Below, piece by piece: positions 37,569 to 45,473 of a stretch of DNA of 64,000 nucleotides; positions within the stretch are counted from its first letter, which is position 1, and each line of letters opens with the position of its first letter. The stretch covers positions 239 through 64,238 of the forward strand of contig CAZZWL010000009.1 of the NCBI GenBank assembly GCA_964657755.1, in the 5' to 3' direction. The position numbers were made by a program, and so were the translations under genes. The notes under the pieces were generated by a model, which had not been told where the DNA came from, ran no database searches, and saw only the letters and a list, made by a program, of their open reading frames with translations. This DNA is from an uncultured Rhodanobacter sp. GTDB taxonomy: Bacteria > Bacteroidota > Bacteroidia > Cytophagales > Hymenobacteraceae.

Positions 37569-39098
37569 ATGCGTTTCAACCTCAATTTTCGCGGCAACGC
37601 CGCGCTGGTTCGCAACCACGAAAACGCGCCGGCTTTTGCCCTCACCCCGGCTCAGGAGCTGTACGCCGCCGTAGCGACGGCCGCCCTTAGCGACCAGTTC
37701 TACGAGTCGGCCAACACCCGCCTGGCCCGCCTGCGCGAGTTGGTGGCCCGCAGCGACCCGCAGTTTGTGGTCCGGCTGGCCGTGTATGCCCGCGAGCAGC
37801 TCTACCTGCGTTCGGTGCCGTTGGTGCTGGCCATAGAATTGGCCCGCATTCACCGGGGCGATAACCTGGTGAGCCGCTTAGTGGCGCGGGTGGTGCAGCG
37901 CGCCGACGAAATCCCCGAACTACTGGCCTTTTACGCCCAGGCCAATGGCCGTACCGGGGCGAAAGTCCTGGGTCGGCTTTCCAAGCAGATGCAGCATGGT
38001 CTGGCCCTGGCGTTCAATAAATTCGACGCCTACCAGCTGGCCAAGTACGACCGCGACGGCGCGGCCGTGCGCCTCCGCGATGCCCTGTTCCTGGTGCACC
38101 CCAAGCCCCGCGACGAGGCGCAGCAGGCGGTATTCAATCAGCTCGTGGCTGGCACGCTGCCGGTGCCCTACACCTGGGAAACCGAGCTGTCGGCCGCTGG
38201 GCAGGTGGCCTACCCCTCGCCCGCCGAGCGGCAGGCGGCTCTCACTCGCACTTGGGAAACGCTGGTGGCCAGCCGCCGCCTGGGCTACATGGCCTTGCTG
38301 CGCAACCTGCGCAACTTGCTGGAAGCCAACGTAAGCGCCGATACGCTGGCCCTGGCCGGCGCCACCCTCGCCGATGCCGGCCAGGTGGCCCGCGCCCGGC
38401 AATTGCCCTTCCGCTTCCTGGCCGCCTACCGCGAGGTGTTGGCCCTGGAAGCGGGCGCGGCGCCCCCGGTGCTGGCCGCGCTGGAGGCCGCCATTGGGGC
38501 CAGTGCCCGCAACCTGTGCGGTTTCGGGGCCGACACCCGCGTGGTGGTGGCCTGCGACGTATCGGGCTCGATGCAGCAACCTATTTCGCCGCGCAGCAAA
38601 GTGCTGCTCTACGACGTGGGCCTGGTGCTGGGCATGTTGCTGCAAAGCCGCTGCCAGCACGTAGTTACCGGCATCTTCGGCAACACCTGGAAGCGGGTGG
38701 CGCTGCCCCAGGGCCAGGTGCTGCGCAACGTGCAGGAGCTGTACCGGCGCGAGGGGGAGGTGGGCTACGCCACCAACGGCCACCTTGTGGTGCAGGACCT
38801 GCGCCAACGCCGCGAGGTAGTGGATAAGGTGATGATTTTCACCGATTGCCAGCTCTGGGATAGTGCCGGGCAAGGTAACACGCTGGCTCAGGAATGGGCC
38901 GCCTACCGCGCCAACGTGGCGCCCCAGGCTCGCCTCTACCTCTTTGACCTGGCCGGCCACGGTACCGCCCCGCTCGACGTGCGCGCCGAGCACGGCGTGG
39001 CCCTCATCGCCGGCTGGTCGGATAAAATCTTCGACGTGCTCGCCGCCCTCGAAACGGGGGGTAGCGCGCTCACCGAAATCGAAAAAATTGAGCTGTAA
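37569..39098 (+). CDS. rsr: Ro60/Rsr TROVE-domain RNA-binding protein with vWA domain
   Basis: AVYAREQLYLRS.P, KYDR...VRLRDALFLVHPKP, YTWETELS, LGYMALLRNLRN, vWA MIDAS-like DVSGSM, IFTDCQ. Confidence 0.95.
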   Translation: MRFNLNFRGNAALVRNHENAPAFALTPAQELYAAVATAALSDQFYESANTRLARLRELVARSDPQFVVRLAVYAREQLYLRSVPLVLAIELARIHRGDNLVSRLVARVVQRADEIPELLAFYAQANGRTGAKVLGRLSKQMQHGLALAFNKFDAYQLAKYDRDGAAVRLRDALFLVHPKPRDEAQQAVFNQLVAGTLPVPYTWETELSAAGQVAYPSPAERQAALTRTWETLVASRRLGYMALLRNLRNLLEANVSADTLALAGATLADAGQVARARQLPFRFLAAYREVLALEAGAAPPVLAALEAAIGASARNLCGFGADTRVVVACDVSGSMQQPISPRSKVLLYDVGLVLGMLLQSRCQHVVTGIFGNTWKRVALPQGQVLRNVQELYRREGEVGYATNGHLVVQDLRQRREVVDKVMIFTDCQLWDSAGQGNTLAQEWAAYRANVAPQARLYLFDLAGHGTAPLDVRAEHGVALIAGWSDKIFDVLAALETGGSALTEIEKIEL

Positions 39099-39363
39099 AA
39101 ACCAAGCGGCCCGGCCGGGCAATAAAGCGGAAACCCCGGCCAGTTGCGTTAGTCAAGAGCTAGGTTACGAATAAATTAATTTTATTCGGCTTCACTAAAT
39201 CTGGCAAACTAATTGTTCTACTCTTTATACGAATCTGTTCTATGATTCCCGACTTAGGCAAACGGCTGACCCCTTAATGGCAGCCGCTGGCCGGAACGGC
39301 TACCCGCCGGGGCCCTGTTTGCTCCGGCGGCCCGTTCCAAACCAGTCCCCAACTCCCTCTCTT

Positions 39364-39476
39364 TCAGGTGCCGTAGGCTCGGCGTTACTTCGTGGTTGTC
39401 GGCGCAAGCCGTAGGGTTCGAATCCCACTGCTGCTATTTCGGTAGCAGTAGATACGCTGGCCGCTTGTCGCCCTGA
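39364..39476 (+). ncRNA. Y RNA-like unit 1 (permuted class II tRNA mimic, no D arm)
   Basis: GGTGCCGTAG ... CGCTTGTCGCCC terminal element, TACTTCG, variable arm CGGC-gcaa-GCCG, T arm GGGTTCGAATCCC, hairpin-closed acceptor CTGCTGCTA/TAGCAGTAG. Confidence 0.75.
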
Positions 39477-39504
39477 ATTTGGAGCTGCTGATTTTTTTCT
39501 GGTG

Positions 39505-39646
39505 AAACCGGGTGCCATCGCGCAGCCATCCTTCGCTCCTTTTTGGGTTGGTCGCGGGTTCGACTCCCGAAGTAGCGTTGCGTAAGTAATGCCGCGTTTG
39601 CGCAGGGGTAGGGCCAGCCCGTGGCTGCCAATTATTGCCCCGGTTT
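39505..39646 (+). ncRNA. Y RNA-like unit 2 (degenerate)
   Basis: Outer stem AAACCGGG/CCCGGTTT, TGCCATCG variant, inner stem GCAGCCA/TGGCTGC, TCCTTCG, T arm CGGGTTCGACTCCCG. Confidence 0.65.
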
Positions 39647-39714
39647 TTCAGAAATTATTCTGCCGTTTTCCGAGCAATTAATTAATTATTCGGAATAAAA
39701 TTTCAAGCACTAAA

Positions 39715-39856
39715 CAGCGGGTGCTGTAGGCGGGCCATCCTTCGGAAGTTGTGCCGCAAGGTGTGCAGGTTCAAGTCCTGCCCCAGGGCTTGCCCTAGGT
39801 GGCGAAATTAGTAGACGCGCTCCTCAATAGCCGGCCTGCCGCTTGTTGCCCCGCTG
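39715..39856 (+). ncRNA. Y RNA-like unit 3 (permuted tRNA-Leu-like mimic)
   Basis: CAGCGGG/CCCGCTG outer stem, TCCTTCG, variable arm GCC-gcaa-GGT, T arm GCAGGTTCAAGTCCTGC, then D arm GGTGGCGAAATTAGTAGACGCGC, and 3' CGCTTGTTGCCC. Confidence 0.8.
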
Positions 39857-39865
39857 CTTATTTTT

Positions 39866-40017
39866 AATCTAGTTGGGTGCCGTAGCCCGGCCATACTTCG
39901 ACTCTTAATCGCCAGGTCGCGGGTTTGAATCCCGCTGGCCGCTGCTTTGGTAGCGGCTGTAGCTCAGTCAGGTAGAGCAGGATATGGCGGCTGGGCGCTT
40001 GTTGCCCCAACTAGATT
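39866..40017 (+). ncRNA. Y RNA-like unit 4 (permuted tRNA-Lys(CTT)-like mimic)
   Basis: AATCTAGTTGGG/CCCAACTAGATT outer stem, TGCCGTAG, TACTTCG, GACTCTTAATC anticodon loop, T arm GCGGGTTTGAATCCCGC, acceptor TGGCCGC/GCGGCTG, D arm TAGCTCAGTCAGGTAGAGC, CGCTTGTTGCCC. Confidence 0.85.
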
Positions 40018-40028
40018 TAGCTTACTAC

Positions 40029-40161
40029 TACCGGTGCCGTAGGTGCGCCTTACTTCGTTCGATACGGTGCGGTCGCGGGTTCGATTCCCGTTCGTGGGTC
40101 CGGCCCACGGTAGCTCAGTTGGCTAGAGCACATTCAGTGGTGCGCCGCTTGTTGCCCGGTA
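40029..40161 (+). ncRNA. Y RNA-like unit 5 (permuted class I tRNA mimic)
   Basis: TACCGG/CCGGTA outer stem, TGCCGTAG, TACTTCG, T arm CGGGTTCGATTCCCG, acceptor CGTGGG/CCCACG, D arm TAGCTCAGTTGGCTAGAGC, CGCTTGTTGCCC. Confidence 0.85.
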
Positions 40162-40292: not shown

Positions 40293-41600
40293 ATGGCCAA
40301 CCGCAACAAACCTTTATCGGCTCAGGCGCGCACGGCGCTGCGGGCTGCCGCTGCCCTAGCGCAGCATTTGCCCTGGCAAAAATGGCCGCCGGCCCGCCAG
40401 GTAGCGTTTATCTTTTCACCCGATGCCGCGCAGGTTATCGGCGCCCAGGCCGAGCCGCATTCGGCCCTGGCGCAGCTGCACCGCCACTGCGTGGCCACCC
40501 GCACCGGCAATGAGCAGGGGCGCATCCGCCACTTCCTCAGCCAGCTTATCAAGTGCCGAACCCGGCTGCTGGACCGCCCCGAGCTGGCTCCGGCCCTGGC
40601 GCACCTGGGCCTGCACTACGCCCACCGGGTGCGCGAAGTAGCCAGCTGGCAGCCGCGCTCCAAAAACGTTTTTTACCAGCTCGACAGCTTAATTCGCCAC
40701 CTTTTTGACCAGTTTGGCGATGTGCCGGGTTGGGTGCTCAATGGCTGGGGTAGGGCGCCCGAGCAGCCCACGGGCGTCGACCTCACGCTGCTTCTTTTGC
40801 ACCTGGGTAGGGGCCAGGCGCTGCGGAGTTTCGCGGGTTTGCCCGTGCCGCTCACCAAGCGCTTGGAGCACGGCTTGCGGCAGGCCCCGGACGGCTGCAC
40901 GTTCCAAGAAGCCTACCGCTACGCCCAACTGGCGGCCCGCGACGCAACCGAGTGGCTGGGCGTAGTGCTCGACTCGCGGCTGGGTCGCGAGCCCATCGGC
41001 CCCGACGATGCGCTGTGGCTGGCGGTGCTCGACCTGTTTCGGGCCGAGCCGGAGGTCGATGCCTGGCAATTTGGCCCGGTGTGCGACTGGATTCACTTCC
41101 GCCGCCGCGTGGGCAGCCTGGCCGAGCCGGCGCAGCCCAACTTCTCGCTGCGGGGCCGCAGCCTGGCCTCGCTGCTGGCGCACACCGCGCGCTGGCATCG
41201 CACGCTAAACCCAGCCCGGCGCAACCCGCGCTTTCAGGAGCTGCTGGCGGCCGTGTGGCCGGGGCTGGCGGTGCCCGATTTTGCGGGCGGCGACGGCGAG
41301 TGGGTCCACATCCGGCAGCTGCGCAGCTACCCCGAATTGCTCGACGAAGGCCGCCACATGCACCACTGCGTGGCCTCCTACGTGCACCAGTGCAAGCGTG
41401 GGCGGCGGGGTATCTATTCACTCACCTTCAACGGCGGCCGGATGCTGACCCTCGAAGTCACGCCCGAATACCAGCTGGTGCAGGTCCGTGGCAAGTACAA
41501 CCGCCGCCCTACCCCCCTCGAGCGCCACTGGCTTGCCCACTGGCTCCGAAAGGAGCGCCTCACGGCCGCCGACCGGGTGTGGGAGGGCGTTTTCGACTAA
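40293..41600 (+). CDS. PcfJ-like domain protein
   Basis: C-terminal L..EG..MHHCVASY...IYSL...LTLEV...QVRGKYN motif characteristic of PcfJ-like proteins. Confidence 0.85.
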   Translation: MANRNKPLSAQARTALRAAAALAQHLPWQKWPPARQVAFIFSPDAAQVIGAQAEPHSALAQLHRHCVATRTGNEQGRIRHFLSQLIKCRTRLLDRPELAPALAHLGLHYAHRVREVASWQPRSKNVFYQLDSLIRHLFDQFGDVPGWVLNGWGRAPEQPTGVDLTLLLLHLGRGQALRSFAGLPVPLTKRLEHGLRQAPDGCTFQEAYRYAQLAARDATEWLGVVLDSRLGREPIGPDDALWLAVLDLFRAEPEVDAWQFGPVCDWIHFRRRVGSLAEPAQPNFSLRGRSLASLLAHTARWHRTLNPARRNPRFQELLAAVWPGLAVPDFAGGDGEWVHIRQLRSYPELLDEGRHMHHCVASYVHQCKRGRRGIYSLTFNGGRMLTLEVTPEYQLVQVRGKYNRRPTPLERHWLAHWLRKERLTAADRVWEGVFD

Positions 41601-41616
41601 AAACCACCACCCACCT

Positions 41617-41678
41617 GCGGTGCCGTAGCGCCGTCTGCCATCGCTTGAAAACCGACCGCTGGCGCGCCTCTTCTCTGC
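41617..41678 (+). ncRNA. Short Y-like unit 6 (no T or D arm)
   Basis: GGTGCCGTAG, inner stem GCGCC/GGCGC, and a loop containing CTTGAAAACC (Ser-TGA anticodon-loop-like). The 3' motif is degenerate. Confidence 0.45.
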
Positions 41679-41682
41679 TTTT

Positions 41683-41780
41683 ATTCAAGTTGCCGGATGC
41701 CGTAGGCCCGCGTTCCTTCGACCTGTCACGTCGCCTTTTGGCCCGACGCGGGCCGCCTGTCGCTCCGGCAATTTTTGAAT
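41683..41780 (+). ncRNA. Short Y-like unit 7 (no T or D arm)
   Basis: TTGCCGGA/TCCGGCAA outer stem, TGCCGTAG, perfect inner stem GGCCCGCGT/ACGCGGGCC, TCCTTCG, 3' CGCCTGTCGC. Confidence 0.65.
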
Positions 41781-41794
41781 TAGGCTGATTAAAA

Positions 41795-41908
41795 AGCCGC
41801 TGGAACGTCATTCCGAGCTTGTCGAGGAATCTCGCTCGCTTCGTTGAACGATACCCGAACGGCCTGGGCGAGATTCCTCGGCAAGCTCGGAATGACGTTC
41901 CAGCGGCT
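41795..41908. repeat. REP/MITE-like inverted repeat (GTCATTCCGAG type)
   Basis: 41-bp arms AGCCGCTGGAACGTCATTCCGAGCTTGTCGAGGAATCTCGC / GCGAGATTCCTCGGCAAGCTCGGAATGACGTTCCAGCGGCT with one G-U pair. Confidence 0.8.
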
Positions 41909-41959
41909 GTCCGCATGCCAATTCATCATTCCAAATACCCCATTCTAAATCTCAAACTA

Positions 41960-43360
41960 ATGGCTTCTATTTTACGGGGCAATGACTTGCGGCAGCTCGG
42001 GTTTCCCGAGGGCCGCGCTATCGGGCTGGCGCTGGCGCAGTTGCAGCGCAAAGAACACAAGCGCCTGACCCAGGCCGACCAGCTCGAATTGCTGAAAGCA
42101 ATTCTGGCGACGCCCACCGATTTTCTTACCGACCTGGCCTGGAGCCACACCGCCGCCGCGCTGCTACCCCCCGTGTCGCGGCACATCGAGCTGGTGGCGC
42201 GCAAGCCCTACGTCACCTTCGGCGCCGAACACATCGACGCCGGGGCGGTGCACCAGATGGAAACCGCCATGAAGCTGCCCGTGACCGTGGCCGGCGCCCT
42301 CATGCCCGACGCCCACCACGGCTACGGCCTGCCCATCGGCGGCGTGCTGGCCACCGATAACGCCGTGATTCCCTACGCCGTGGGCGTGGACATTGGCTGC
42401 CGCATGGCCCTCTCGGTGTATGACCTGCCGGCCAAGTACCTCACCCAGCGCGTGCAGGAAGTGCGCCACCTGCTGCTCGAAAACACCCGTTTCGGTAGCG
42501 GCCGCAGCTGGGAGCGGGGCCAGCGCCTCGACCACGCCGTGCTGCACAGCGACACGTTCCAGGCCATTCCGTTTCTGAAAAACAAGCTCGACCGCGCCGC
42601 TGAGCAGGTGGGCACGTCGGGCTCGGGCAACCACTTCGTGGAGTTCGGGATTGTGGAAATCATCGACCCAGCCAACGAGTTGGCCCTACCCCCCGGTCAG
42701 TACGTGGGCGTGCTCTCGCACTCGGGCTCGCGGGGGCTGGGCGCGGGCATTGCCGAGCACTATACCAAGCTCGCCAAAGACGTGTGCCAGCTGCCCGCCG
42801 AGGCGCAAAACCTGGCCTGGCTGGGCCTCGACACCGAGGCCGGCCAGGAATACTGGGCCGCCATGAACCTGGCCGGCGACTACGCCTCGGCTTGCCACGA
42901 CCAGATTCACCGTCGGCTAGCGCGCGCCTTGGGCGAAAAGCCGCTGGCGAAAGTGGAAAACCACCACAACTTCGCCTGGAAGGAGCGCCTGGCCGATGGC
43001 CGCGAGGTCATCACGCACCGCAAGGGCGCTACCCCGGCCGGCGCGGGCGTGCTCGGCATTATTCCCGGCTCCATGACGGCCCCCGGCTTCATTGTGCGGG
43101 GTAGGGGCGCGGCGGCGTCGCTGGCTTCGGCCTCGCACGGGGCGGGCCGGCTGCTGTCGCGCACCCGCGCCAAGGCCGAAATCGGCGAAGCCGACCTACG
43201 CCGGCAGCTTGCCGACCACGGCGTGGAGCTGCTCGGCGGTGGCCTCGACGAAGCCCCACAGGCCTACAAAGACATCCACACCGTGATGGCCAGCCAGCGC
43301 GAATTAGTGGATGTGCTCGGCTCCTTCACGCCCAGAATCGTGCGGATGGATGGTGCTTGA
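41960..43360 (+). CDS. rtcB: RtcB family RNA ligase with N-terminal extension
   Basis: MPDAHHGYGLPIGG, VDIGC, GSGNHF, SHSGSRG, NHHNF, HRKGA, IPGSM, SHGAG, DEAPQAYK. Start placed at ATG 41960. Confidence 0.96.
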   Translation: MASILRGNDLRQLGFPEGRAIGLALAQLQRKEHKRLTQADQLELLKAILATPTDFLTDLAWSHTAAALLPPVSRHIELVARKPYVTFGAEHIDAGAVHQMETAMKLPVTVAGALMPDAHHGYGLPIGGVLATDNAVIPYAVGVDIGCRMALSVYDLPAKYLTQRVQEVRHLLLENTRFGSGRSWERGQRLDHAVLHSDTFQAIPFLKNKLDRAAEQVGTSGSGNHFVEFGIVEIIDPANELALPPGQYVGVLSHSGSRGLGAGIAEHYTKLAKDVCQLPAEAQNLAWLGLDTEAGQEYWAAMNLAGDYASACHDQIHRRLARALGEKPLAKVENHHNFAWKERLADGREVITHRKGATPAGAGVLGIIPGSMTAPGFIVRGRGAAASLASASHGAGRLLSRTRAKAEIGEADLRRQLADHGVELLGGGLDEAPQAYKDIHTVMASQRELVDVLGSFTPRIVRMDGA

Positions 43361-45383: not shown

Positions 45384-45465
45384 GCGCACGTGGTGAAACT
45401 GGTAGACACGCCATCTTGAGGGGGTGGTGCCTTCGGGTGTGGGAGTTCGAATCTCCCCGCGCGCA
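45384..45465 (+). tRNA. tRNA-Leu(GAG)
   Basis: GCGCACGTGGTGAAACTGGTAGACACG-CCATC-TT-GAG-GG-GGTGG, long variable arm, GGAGTTCGAATCTCC, CGCGCGC-A. Confidence 0.95.
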
Positions 45466-45473
45466 CGCAAAGC

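Follow-up and report, generated by a model that had tools for sequence, protein, structure and literature searches.

Downstream of the Ro60 gene rsr on contig CAZZWL010000009.1, the window (the whole stretch of DNA that was analysed, 64,000 nucleotides (nt) in length) carries five tandem units at 39363-40160 that resemble YrlA-type Y RNAs, the bacterial RNAs that combine a Ro60-binding stem with a mimic of transfer RNA (tRNA). The segment under study, 39364-39856, covers the first three of these five units. We consider it probable that the segment opens an array of YrlA-type Y RNA genes that are paralogous to one another, in which unit 3 carries a copy of a tRNA-Leu body and unit 1 belongs to a D-armless class that is free of isotype identity. 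The original prediction had described units 1 and 3 as mimics of class II tRNAs with a long variable arm, Ser-like and Leu-like, respectively. All sequence features it had quoted for these two units were found again at the same positions, including the missing D arm of unit 1. The Leu-like assignment of unit 3 was borne out by the analysis, and the Ser-like assignment of unit 1 had to be given up.

The inner module of unit 3 is composed of a variable arm, a T arm, a closed acceptor stem and a D arm, with the Ro-binding stems of the unit flanking these elements on the outside (Table 1). The D-arm string GGTGGCGAAATTAGTAGACGCGC at 39798-39820 contains a 22-base core, GTGGCGAAATTAGTAGACGCGC, which was compared with tRNA-Leu genes. 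This core is identical at 21 of 22 positions to the tRNA-Leu(CAG) and tRNA-Leu(UAG) genes located elsewhere in the same genome. It matches 18 of 22 positions of the tRNA-Leu(GAG) gene within the window (45384-45466), whose D arm had been named as comparable in the original prediction. A search of the 5.6-Mb assembly for the Leu D-arm 22-mer with up to three mismatches returned three tRNA-Leu genes and unit 3 only.

For isotype scoring, each unit was aligned locally to the genome's own 40 tRNAs, as extracted by ARAGORN, and two halves of the unit were scored separately, one comprising the variable arm and the T arm and the other extending over positions 8-31 with the D arm. The three top-scoring tRNAs for unit 3 were all Leu isoacceptors, with scores of 72, 60 and 56, compared to 35 for the best non-Leu tRNA. 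Leu was the best isotype for both halves, and the total of 75 stands against 33 ± 3 (maximum 45) in 500 shuffles. The alignment to tRNA-Leu(CAG) extends from the 3′ strand of the anticodon stem (GGAAG versus GGCAG) through the variable arm into the T arm, and a second homologous stretch spans positions 8-27. The variable-arm sequence CCGCAAGGTGTG is present in tRNA-Leu(CAG) and tRNA-Leu(CAA) but not in the other three isoacceptors. By itself this 12-mer is not significant, having two unrelated occurrences in the genome, and it is its position beside the T arm that counts.

Unit 3 was also re-permuted into the order of a tRNA (acceptor 5′ strand, D arm, a supplied anticodon loop, variable arm, T arm, acceptor 3′ strand), and from this sequence ARAGORN drew a class II cloverleaf with a long variable arm. 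Because the anticodon loops of permuted units 3 and 5 were added, the corresponding labels ‘Leu(cag)’ and ‘Met(cat)’ are uninformative and only the fold is informative. Judged by these alignments, the inner module of unit 3 is a copy of a tRNA-Leu body, with a similarity far above chance.

Related arrays were detected by DNA search in genomes of the same genus, Hymenobacter, and 13 of these sister arrays, with 4-8 units each, were examined. A covariance model of the Leu-like class (R1) identified arrays in 110 out of a sample of 151 Hymenobacter genomes, with 1-8 matches each. A Leu-like unit is present in about 41 of the 151 genomes, corresponding to 42 by R1 score minus G049, which is Ser-like according to a second model built on true Ser-like units (R2). 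In named species the Leu-like unit always lies 3′ of rsr on the same strand. Across 30 Leu-like orthologs, 90.6% of the alignment cells were paired versus 75.2% in shuffles, and both-side changes were seen in 31 of 40 pairs; the observed values were matched by none of 500 shuffles. Slid controls of the same alignment were 36-45% paired. Covariation supports the variable arm with all three of its pairs, the T arm, the acceptor stem of 7 base pairs (bp) and both Ro stems, the terminal helix with the Ro motif being 93-95% paired. The 3-bp D stem is invariant, as it is in tRNA-Leu, and the acceptor stem stays constant at 7 bp while its sequence turns over. At the level of the aligned orthologs, it is shown that purifying selection acts on the helices of the Leu-like class.

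All units have a common outer scaffold, which reads GGUGCCGUAG followed by CUUCG on the 5′ side and GCUUGUUGCCC on the 3′ side. By analogy with known Y RNAs, this scaffold would constitute the Ro60-binding helix. A unit starts with GGTGCCGTAG or a near variant in five of five cases and ends with CTTGTYGCCC in four, and a T loop of the form GGTTCRANTCC is present in all five. The putative Ro motif reads GCCGUAG in units 1, 4 and 5, GCUGUAG in unit 3 and GCCAUCG in unit 2, and the first of these differs by a single base, A to U, from the published GNCGAAN0-1G motif. The array is located within approximately 4 kb of rsr (end at 39098) on the same strand, an arrangement likewise found in at least 24 named Hymenobacter species. 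The succession of T arm, closed acceptor-like stem-loop and D arm is present in units 3, 4 and 5, while units 1 and 2 are without a D arm. The Rfam YrlA model (RF02553) matched unit 4 with 36.3 bits (E = 6.3e-6) and unit 5 with 35.7 bits (E = 9.5e-6). On the native-order sequence, ARAGORN called no tRNA anywhere in the array, and Rfam likewise reported no tRNA there. As a separate observation, an (A/C)CUUCG motif follows 3′ of the second Ro stem in every unit (39385-40060).

Unit 1 is built from the Ro-binding closing stem, the CUUCG motif, a conserved UGGU and then three hairpins. It has no D arm, because AUACGC runs straight into the closing stem after the acceptor-like hairpin. Its isotype scores are flat, with Pro at 43, Lys at 42 and Ser at 41. 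Permuted units 1 and 2 were not recognized by ARAGORN and hence have no cloverleaf reading, and R2 gave no match in the window's genome at E ≤ 1e-19. The original prediction had proposed that re-permuted units be scored for isotype preference: unit 3 yielded a class II fold and a preference for Leu, whereas unit 1 was unrecognized and showed no preference.

Units of the type of unit 1, here termed class A, are the first in 11 of the 13 sister arrays and the second in the remaining two, and as a group they have no isotype preference. Each of them shows the CUUCG motif and a single-stranded YUGGU, then one hairpin ahead of the T-like hairpin (3 bp, GGG/CCC), followed by the acceptor-like hairpin and AUACGCC. 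The hairpin that precedes the T-like hairpin measures 4-12 bp in 13 of 15 folded units; the other two were mis-segmented by the script and set aside. It is 4 bp long only in the window and its two nearest relatives, compared to 8-12 bp in the other ten. In G004, G074 (L025) and G086 (L046), this hairpin exactly reproduces the anticodon arm of tRNA-Asn, ATCTGACTGTTAATCAGAG, with 19 nt matching exactly in G004 and an identical sequence in the other two genomes. This copy provides direct evidence that pieces of tRNA genes have been copied into Y units. In its behaviour, the class A hairpin corresponds to the position of an anticodon arm and not to a variable arm, and the single-stranded YUGGU might, more speculatively, substitute for G18-G19 of the D loop. 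Unit 1 is a member of a separate D-armless class without isotype identity and is not Ser-like.

The remaining units of the array follow other patterns. Unit 2 (class E) combines a degenerate Ro motif (GGUGCCAUCG) with a T arm containing GGUUCGACUCC and a 7-bp hairpin capped by GUAA, and lacks a canonical D arm. Its T arm shows a weak Asp-type similarity (54 versus 40), and orthologs of the unit are found in G021, G015, G004, G016 and G001. When unit 4 was stripped of its Ro stem and of the distal part of its acceptor hairpin and supplied with a terminal TACCA, a 74-nt cloverleaf resulted that ARAGORN called as tRNA-Lys(CUU). The Ro stem of this unit enters between tRNA positions 28 and 29 and interrupts the anticodon stem. 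Among unit 4 orthologs the stem of the anticodon-like hairpin covaries (GCA/UGC, CGA/UCG, GCG/CGC), and U33 and a purine at position 37 (R37) are kept. The ‘anticodon’ itself is free, with UUU as the commonest triplet next to CUU, UCG, UCC, GUG and UUG. ARAGORN calls of D-armless ‘tRNAs’ over unit 4 orthologs in sister loci were rejected as genes, being partial cloverleaves made of the anticodon-like hairpin and the T arm. Permuted unit 5 with a supplied anticodon loop was also drawn by ARAGORN as a 74-nt class I cloverleaf, in agreement with the earlier description of units 4 and 5 as class I-like.

Several unit classes recur in the sister arrays: the D-armless first unit, unit 2, the Leu-like unit, a Ser-like unit, unit 4 and unit 5, as well as a class without a hairpin before the T arm and short Y RNAs without a tRNA domain. 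Ser-like units as defined by R2 occur in about 32 of the 151 genomes, about nine of which also have a Leu-like unit; the window's genome has none. They carry the D arm GUGGCUGAGUGGUYRAAAGC and a variable arm of 5-6 bp, and their variable and T arms are close to those of tRNA-Ser(CGA). Their scores amount to 65-68 with margins of 22-29 in three genomes and to 52-54 with margins of 7-8 in two genomes. Beyond the genus, R1 matches were obtained in 41 of 133 genera of the order Cytophagales, and Leu-type D arms are present among these matches in at least two other Cytophagales families. Outside the genus there are also Asp-like units with a CUGUCAC loop (anticodon GUC) and an Asp-type D arm, and Lys-like units with a CUUUUAA loop. 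The repertoire and the order of the units differ between species. The suggestion that the units form a repertoire of isotype mimics holds at the level of the genus. Besides the Leu- and Ser-like units there are Lys- and Asp-like ones with anticodon loops to match, as well as the copied tRNA-Asn arm, and the comparison of Hymenobacter genomes revealed the variation in unit make-up and order that the original prediction had asked about.

Some observations weigh against the view that the units are YrlA-type RNAs and that unit 3 carries a tRNA-Leu body. RF02553 misses units 1-3 even at E ≤ 10, so that these three units are not classifiable by Rfam, and units 4 and 5 reach only about half of the Rfam YrlA gathering score (69 bits). 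The sole difference in the D arm of the window's unit 3 is that G18, an elbow nucleotide with universal conservation, has become A, and GG at G18G19 is kept in 27 of the 30 Leu-like orthologs; owing to this change, the unit 3 of the window may fold less well. Moreover, the variable-arm and T-arm half scores best against a non-Leu isotype in 13 of 29 orthologs, for which reason the Leu identity rests mainly on the D arm and the architecture of the arms. An anticodon stem drawn by hand for the Leu-like class is only 52-76% paired among the 30 orthologs and is not claimed. Compared to a tRNA-Leu, unit 3 departs from the hallmarks in that its acceptor stem is closed by CUUG, a Ro stem replaces the anticodon loop and G18 is an A. 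Lastly, we know of no partner protein that is specific for a Leu-type module.

With regard to origin, the most likely ancestor of unit 3 is a tRNA-Leu(CAG)-like gene. The unit could have formed at the junction of a tandem tRNA-Leu pair or by recombination of a tRNA-Leu gene into an existing Y scaffold, and the exact order of T arm, 7-bp acceptor hairpin and D arm is what the junction of two tandem copies of one tRNA gene would produce. Selection has maintained the unit throughout the genus. For the array, duplication of the Ro scaffold with replacement of the tRNA module fits best, because all units have one Ro-binding scaffold. The original prediction had regarded the units as captured from different tRNA isotypes instead of duplicated from one. 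They do resemble different isotypes; capture and duplication are not cleanly separable in units built on one common scaffold.

It appears improbable that all five units arose by duplication from one ancestral YrlA and that unit 3 looks like tRNA-Leu by convergence or chance. The D loop of tRNA-Leu is for the most part conserved throughout the bacteria, so that such a loop could in principle be arrived at anew by selection for a class II fold. The Ro-binding scaffold and the CUUCG motif common to all units would also fit a single ancestor, as would the 13 of 29 orthologs in which the variable-arm and T-arm half is not best with Leu. However, convergence would have to arrive at 21 of 22 positions of the D arm of the genome's own tRNA-Leu, at a variable-arm sequence that among the Leu isoacceptors only CAG and CAA have, and at an alignment that continues into the 3′ strand of the anticodon stem. 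The parallel Ser-, Asp- and Lys-like units, in which D arm, T arm and anticodon loop agree on one isotype, and the exact 19-nt copy of the tRNA-Asn anticodon arm speak against a single ancestor as well.

Less probable still is the notion that units 1 and 3 are decaying tRNA remnants, i.e., pseudogenes or rearranged fragments without a function of their own. The short T stem of unit 1 (3 bp) and its missing D arm, the degenerate Ro motif of unit 2, the G18 to A change of unit 3 and the broken T stem of one ortholog (G019) could be taken as signs of decay. Nonetheless, orthologs are found beside rsr at the same position in dozens of species, all helices are preserved through compensatory changes (31 of 40 pairs, matched in 0 of 500 shuffles), and the acceptor stem stays at 7 bp despite the turnover of its sequence.

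Least probable of all is that the units are circularly permuted tRNA genes of the type known from the red alga Cyanidioschyzon, processed to chargeable tRNAs by an RNase P cut in the acceptor loop and CCA tailing, even though their order is T arm, acceptor, D arm, permuted unit 4 gives a complete tRNA-Lys(CUU) cloverleaf, and the YrlA of M. smegmatis is cut by RNase P and gains CCA in vivo (PMC4201824). Against this, unit 3 has a Ro stem in place of an anticodon loop, the acceptor loop is just 4 nt long, and in the orthologs of unit 4 the ‘anticodon’ varies freely, and the anticodon stem of unit 4 is interrupted by the Ro stem. In addition, the equivalent of position 73 is a C in the inspected copies and not A73, which leucyl-tRNA synthetase requires (identity element of the E. 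coli enzyme).

As to function, Ro60 would hold the scaffold, and the exposed module would act as a tether or decoy for proteins that recognize the shape of tRNAs. Unit 3 would then be a Ro60-tethered mimic of the class II tRNA-Leu body, with readers of class II or Leu-type shapes as its targets, and the isotype-specific surfaces would be read by some partner protein. RtcB-dependent RNA repair could be the setting in which the modules act. The Y units cannot decode, because their acceptor end is closed; unit 3, moreover, lacks an anticodon.

A further-reaching proposal, which we put forward as unlikely but worth stating, is that the arrays serve as a panel of tRNA decoys or sensors resolved by isotype. 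On a Ro60 handle, each unit would display one tRNA body (Leu, Ser, Lys, Asp or Asn, in some cases together with an anticodon loop) and, for its own isotype, capture or report tRNA-specific attackers or enzymes such as anticodon nucleases, class II-specific factors or RtcB. Copying of tRNA gene pieces into the units would re-tool the panel. To our knowledge, published work names no effector of YrlA and treats YrlA as a generic mimic of tRNA shape whose class I-type elbow is highly conserved. The arrays described here suggest that tRNA mimicry by Y RNAs can be isotype-specific and go beyond general tRNA shape, with Leu- and Ser-type class II bodies faithfully retained genus-wide and beyond. Surviving intermediates, such as the anticodon-like loop and the copied anticodon arm, make the origin of Y RNAs from tRNA dimers directly testable. 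Should partners read isotype-specific parts, the Leu-, Ser- and class I-like units could help to identify YrlA effectors and their link to RtcB repair.

The array is intergenic, lies on the + strand and is co-oriented with rsr upstream and rtcB downstream; a PcfJ-like gene is located between the array and rtcB. The closest named relatives of the Ro60 protein are from Hymenobacter species, with up to 95% identity (Hymenobacter sp. UV11). In G018 and other sister loci there is no PcfJ-like gene at this point, and rtcB comes directly 3′ of the array. Between the PcfJ-like gene and rtcB there is a pair of short Y-like units, and the same pair also ends the arrays of G018, G001, G004 and G012, with no PcfJ-like gene in between. 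Coordinates of all features are listed in Table 1.

Between the stop codon of rsr and unit 1, a conserved RNA element of about 95 nt with two hairpins was noted (39237-39335, + strand). It has the form CGGCUGACC..GGCAGCCG followed by GGAACGG-[variable hairpin]-CCGUUCC, and in 11 of the 13 sister arrays it precedes the first unit. Of its 21 pairs predicted by RNAalifold, 7 show compensatory changes. The element has no Rfam match; it could be a processing signal or a separate non-coding RNA. Elsewhere in the window, the tRNA-Leu(GAG) gene at 45384-45466 was called by ARAGORN, while a scan of the whole window at Rfam gathering thresholds lists only a tRNA-Glu. Three metagenome bins labelled ‘Janthinobacterium lividum’ (L060, L064, L065) contain Hymenobacter-type rsr loci whose Ro60 is 86-88% identical to that of the window, and these bins are probably mislabelled or contaminated.

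Table 1 Positions of the Y RNA units, their structural parts and neighbouring genes in the window, with example units from other genomes.
Feature	Position	Strand	Evidence or description
rsr (Ro60 ortholog, 509 aa)	37569..39098	+	Pfam TROVE E = 6.4e-26; vWA_Ro60 E = 1.2e-6
Y RNA unit 1 (class A)	39363..39477	+	sequence, minimum free energy fold
Unit 1 hairpin CGGC-GCAA-GCCG	39400-39411	+	4 bp
Unit 1 T-like hairpin GGG-TTCGAAT-CCC	39414-39426	+	3 bp
Unit 1 acceptor-like hairpin, UUCG-capped	39428-39451	+	10 bp
Y RNA unit 2 (class E)	39507..39645	+	sequence, fold, orthologs
Y RNA unit 3 (tRNA-Leu mimic)	39715..39856	+	isotype scores, tRNA-Leu(CAG) alignment, permuted fold, covariation
Unit 3 variable arm GCC-GCAA-GGT	39753-39762	+	3 bp and GCAA loop
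Unit 3 T arm GCAGG-TTCAAGT-CCTGC	39765-39781	+	perfect 5 bp
Unit 3 acceptor stem CCCAGGG/CCCTAGG	39782-39788 / 39793-39799	+	7 bp, one A-C mismatch, CTTG (CUUG) loop
Unit 3 D arm	39802-39818	+	3-bp stem, 11-nt loop; preceded by U-G
Y RNA unit 4 (class C, class I tRNA mimic)	39870..40013	+	Rfam YrlA match, permuted ARAGORN call
Unit 4 anticodon-like hairpin CGA-CUCUUAA-UCG	39899-39911	+	sequence
Y RNA unit 5 (class D, canonical YrlA-like class I mimic)	40030..40160	+	Rfam YrlA match
PcfJ-like gene, between Y units 5 and 6	40293..41600	+	Pfam PcfJ E = 8.3e-15
Two short Y-like units without T or D arms	41617-41680, 41693-41770	+	sequence; both begin (G/A)TGCCGTAG
rtcB RNA ligase	41819..43360	+	Pfam RtcB E = 4.4e-82
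Ser-like example units	G021:C79:84676-84823; G015:C78:7049-7195		sister genomes
Asp-like Y unit, other Cytophagales family	L054:2151-2286		loop CUGUCAC, variable loop, T arm and D arm match tRNA-Asp; margin 22

Y RNAs bind Ro60 through their terminal helix and present an effector module, and the modules of YrlA RNAs adopt the L-shape of tRNA and serve TruB and DusA as substrates, as well as RNase P in M. smegmatis (PMC4201824; bioRxiv 10.1101/312249; PMC7790460). YrlA RNAs have been described as tRNA mimics that are bound by Ro60, have their acceptor stem closed and lack an anticodon loop (PMC4201824; bioRxiv 10.1101/312249). Members of the family (RF02553) are known from Salmonella Typhimurium, Mycobacterium smegmatis and approximately 250 other bacteria and phages (PMC4201824; bioRxiv 10.1101/312249, PDB 6cu1), and rsr-yrlA loci often adjoin rtcB (PMC4201824; bioRxiv 10.1101/312249; PMC7790460). 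The array in the window resembles these RNAs in its location within 4 kb of rsr, here also beside rtcB, and in its outer stem with a putative GNCGAA-like Ro motif, here GCCGUAG; in the terminal helix, GNCGAAN0-1G is the proposed contact to Ro60 (Chen et al. 2014, PMC4201824). Further common traits are the T arm placed 5′ of the D arm, the loop-closed acceptor stem and, in units 3 and 5, the absence of an anticodon loop.

The array differs from published YrlAs in several respects. The T and D stems of the latter are described as being of class I type and extremely conserved (GUAGCUCA...GAGC), whereas unit 3 carries a tRNA-Leu D arm and units in sister genomes carry a tRNA-Ser D arm. An anticodon-like loop is retained in unit 4, unlike in the YrlA of S. 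Typhimurium (bioRxiv 10.1101/312249). Loci in the genus contain 5-8 tandem units compared to 1-2 elsewhere (up to four small RNAs in D. radiodurans), and the Rfam scores obtained here are below gathering, or there is no match. Long variable loops ‘characteristic of class II tRNAs’ were reported for many YrlAs by Wang et al. (2018, bioRxiv 10.1101/312249), which is why a class II-like arm alone is not new. In our literature search we found no account of YrlA-type RNAs with Leu- or Ser-type D arms, of YrlA-type units that retain anticodon loops, or of YrlA arrays with 5-8 units and species-specific repertoires.

In its layout, unit 1 is similar to Yrn1 of D. radiodurans (Chen et al. 2013, 2014), as both have a T arm, no full D arm and an extra stem-loop that may be read as an anticodon-like arm. 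According to Chen et al. (PMC4201824), Yrn1 has ‘some D-loop features’, a full D arm being absent, and in the orthologs of unit 1 the single-stranded UGGU could play the part of G18-G19. The two differ in that the length of the class A hairpin is hypervariable. Tethering of PNPase has been shown for Yrn1. The closest relatives of unit 3, in turn, are tRNA-Leu(CAG) on contig 28 and tRNA-Leu(UAG) on contig 63, to which it is alike in the D arm (21/22), the size and sequence of the variable arm, the T arm and the 7-bp acceptor. Unlike these tRNAs, its parts are permuted, its acceptor is closed by CUUG and has no CCA end, an anticodon loop is lacking, G18 is replaced by A, and the module sits within a Ro-binding stem. 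In the permuted tRNA genes of Cyanidioschyzon, the 3′ half lies upstream of the 5′ half, the anticodon arm is intact and a mature decoding tRNA is produced. The units are also permuted in order, but unit 3 has no anticodon loop, and unit 4 has an interrupted anticodon stem and an unconserved triplet.

Lastly, the units can be compared with the dimeric-tRNA origin model (Sim and Wolin 2018, cited in bioRxiv 10.1101/312249), which, as it is summarized there, derives the T arm from the upstream and the D arm from the downstream member of a tRNA pair and has the acceptor stem closed by the spacer. The layout of the units is exactly as in this summary of the model, and unit 4 still has the anticodon arm that would be expected from the upstream tRNA. 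In contrast to the model so summarized, the isotype-specific units take both halves from the same isotype and their acceptor is a true 7-bp helix, which points to a tandem duplicate or a permutation of one tRNA gene and not to two unrelated neighbours.

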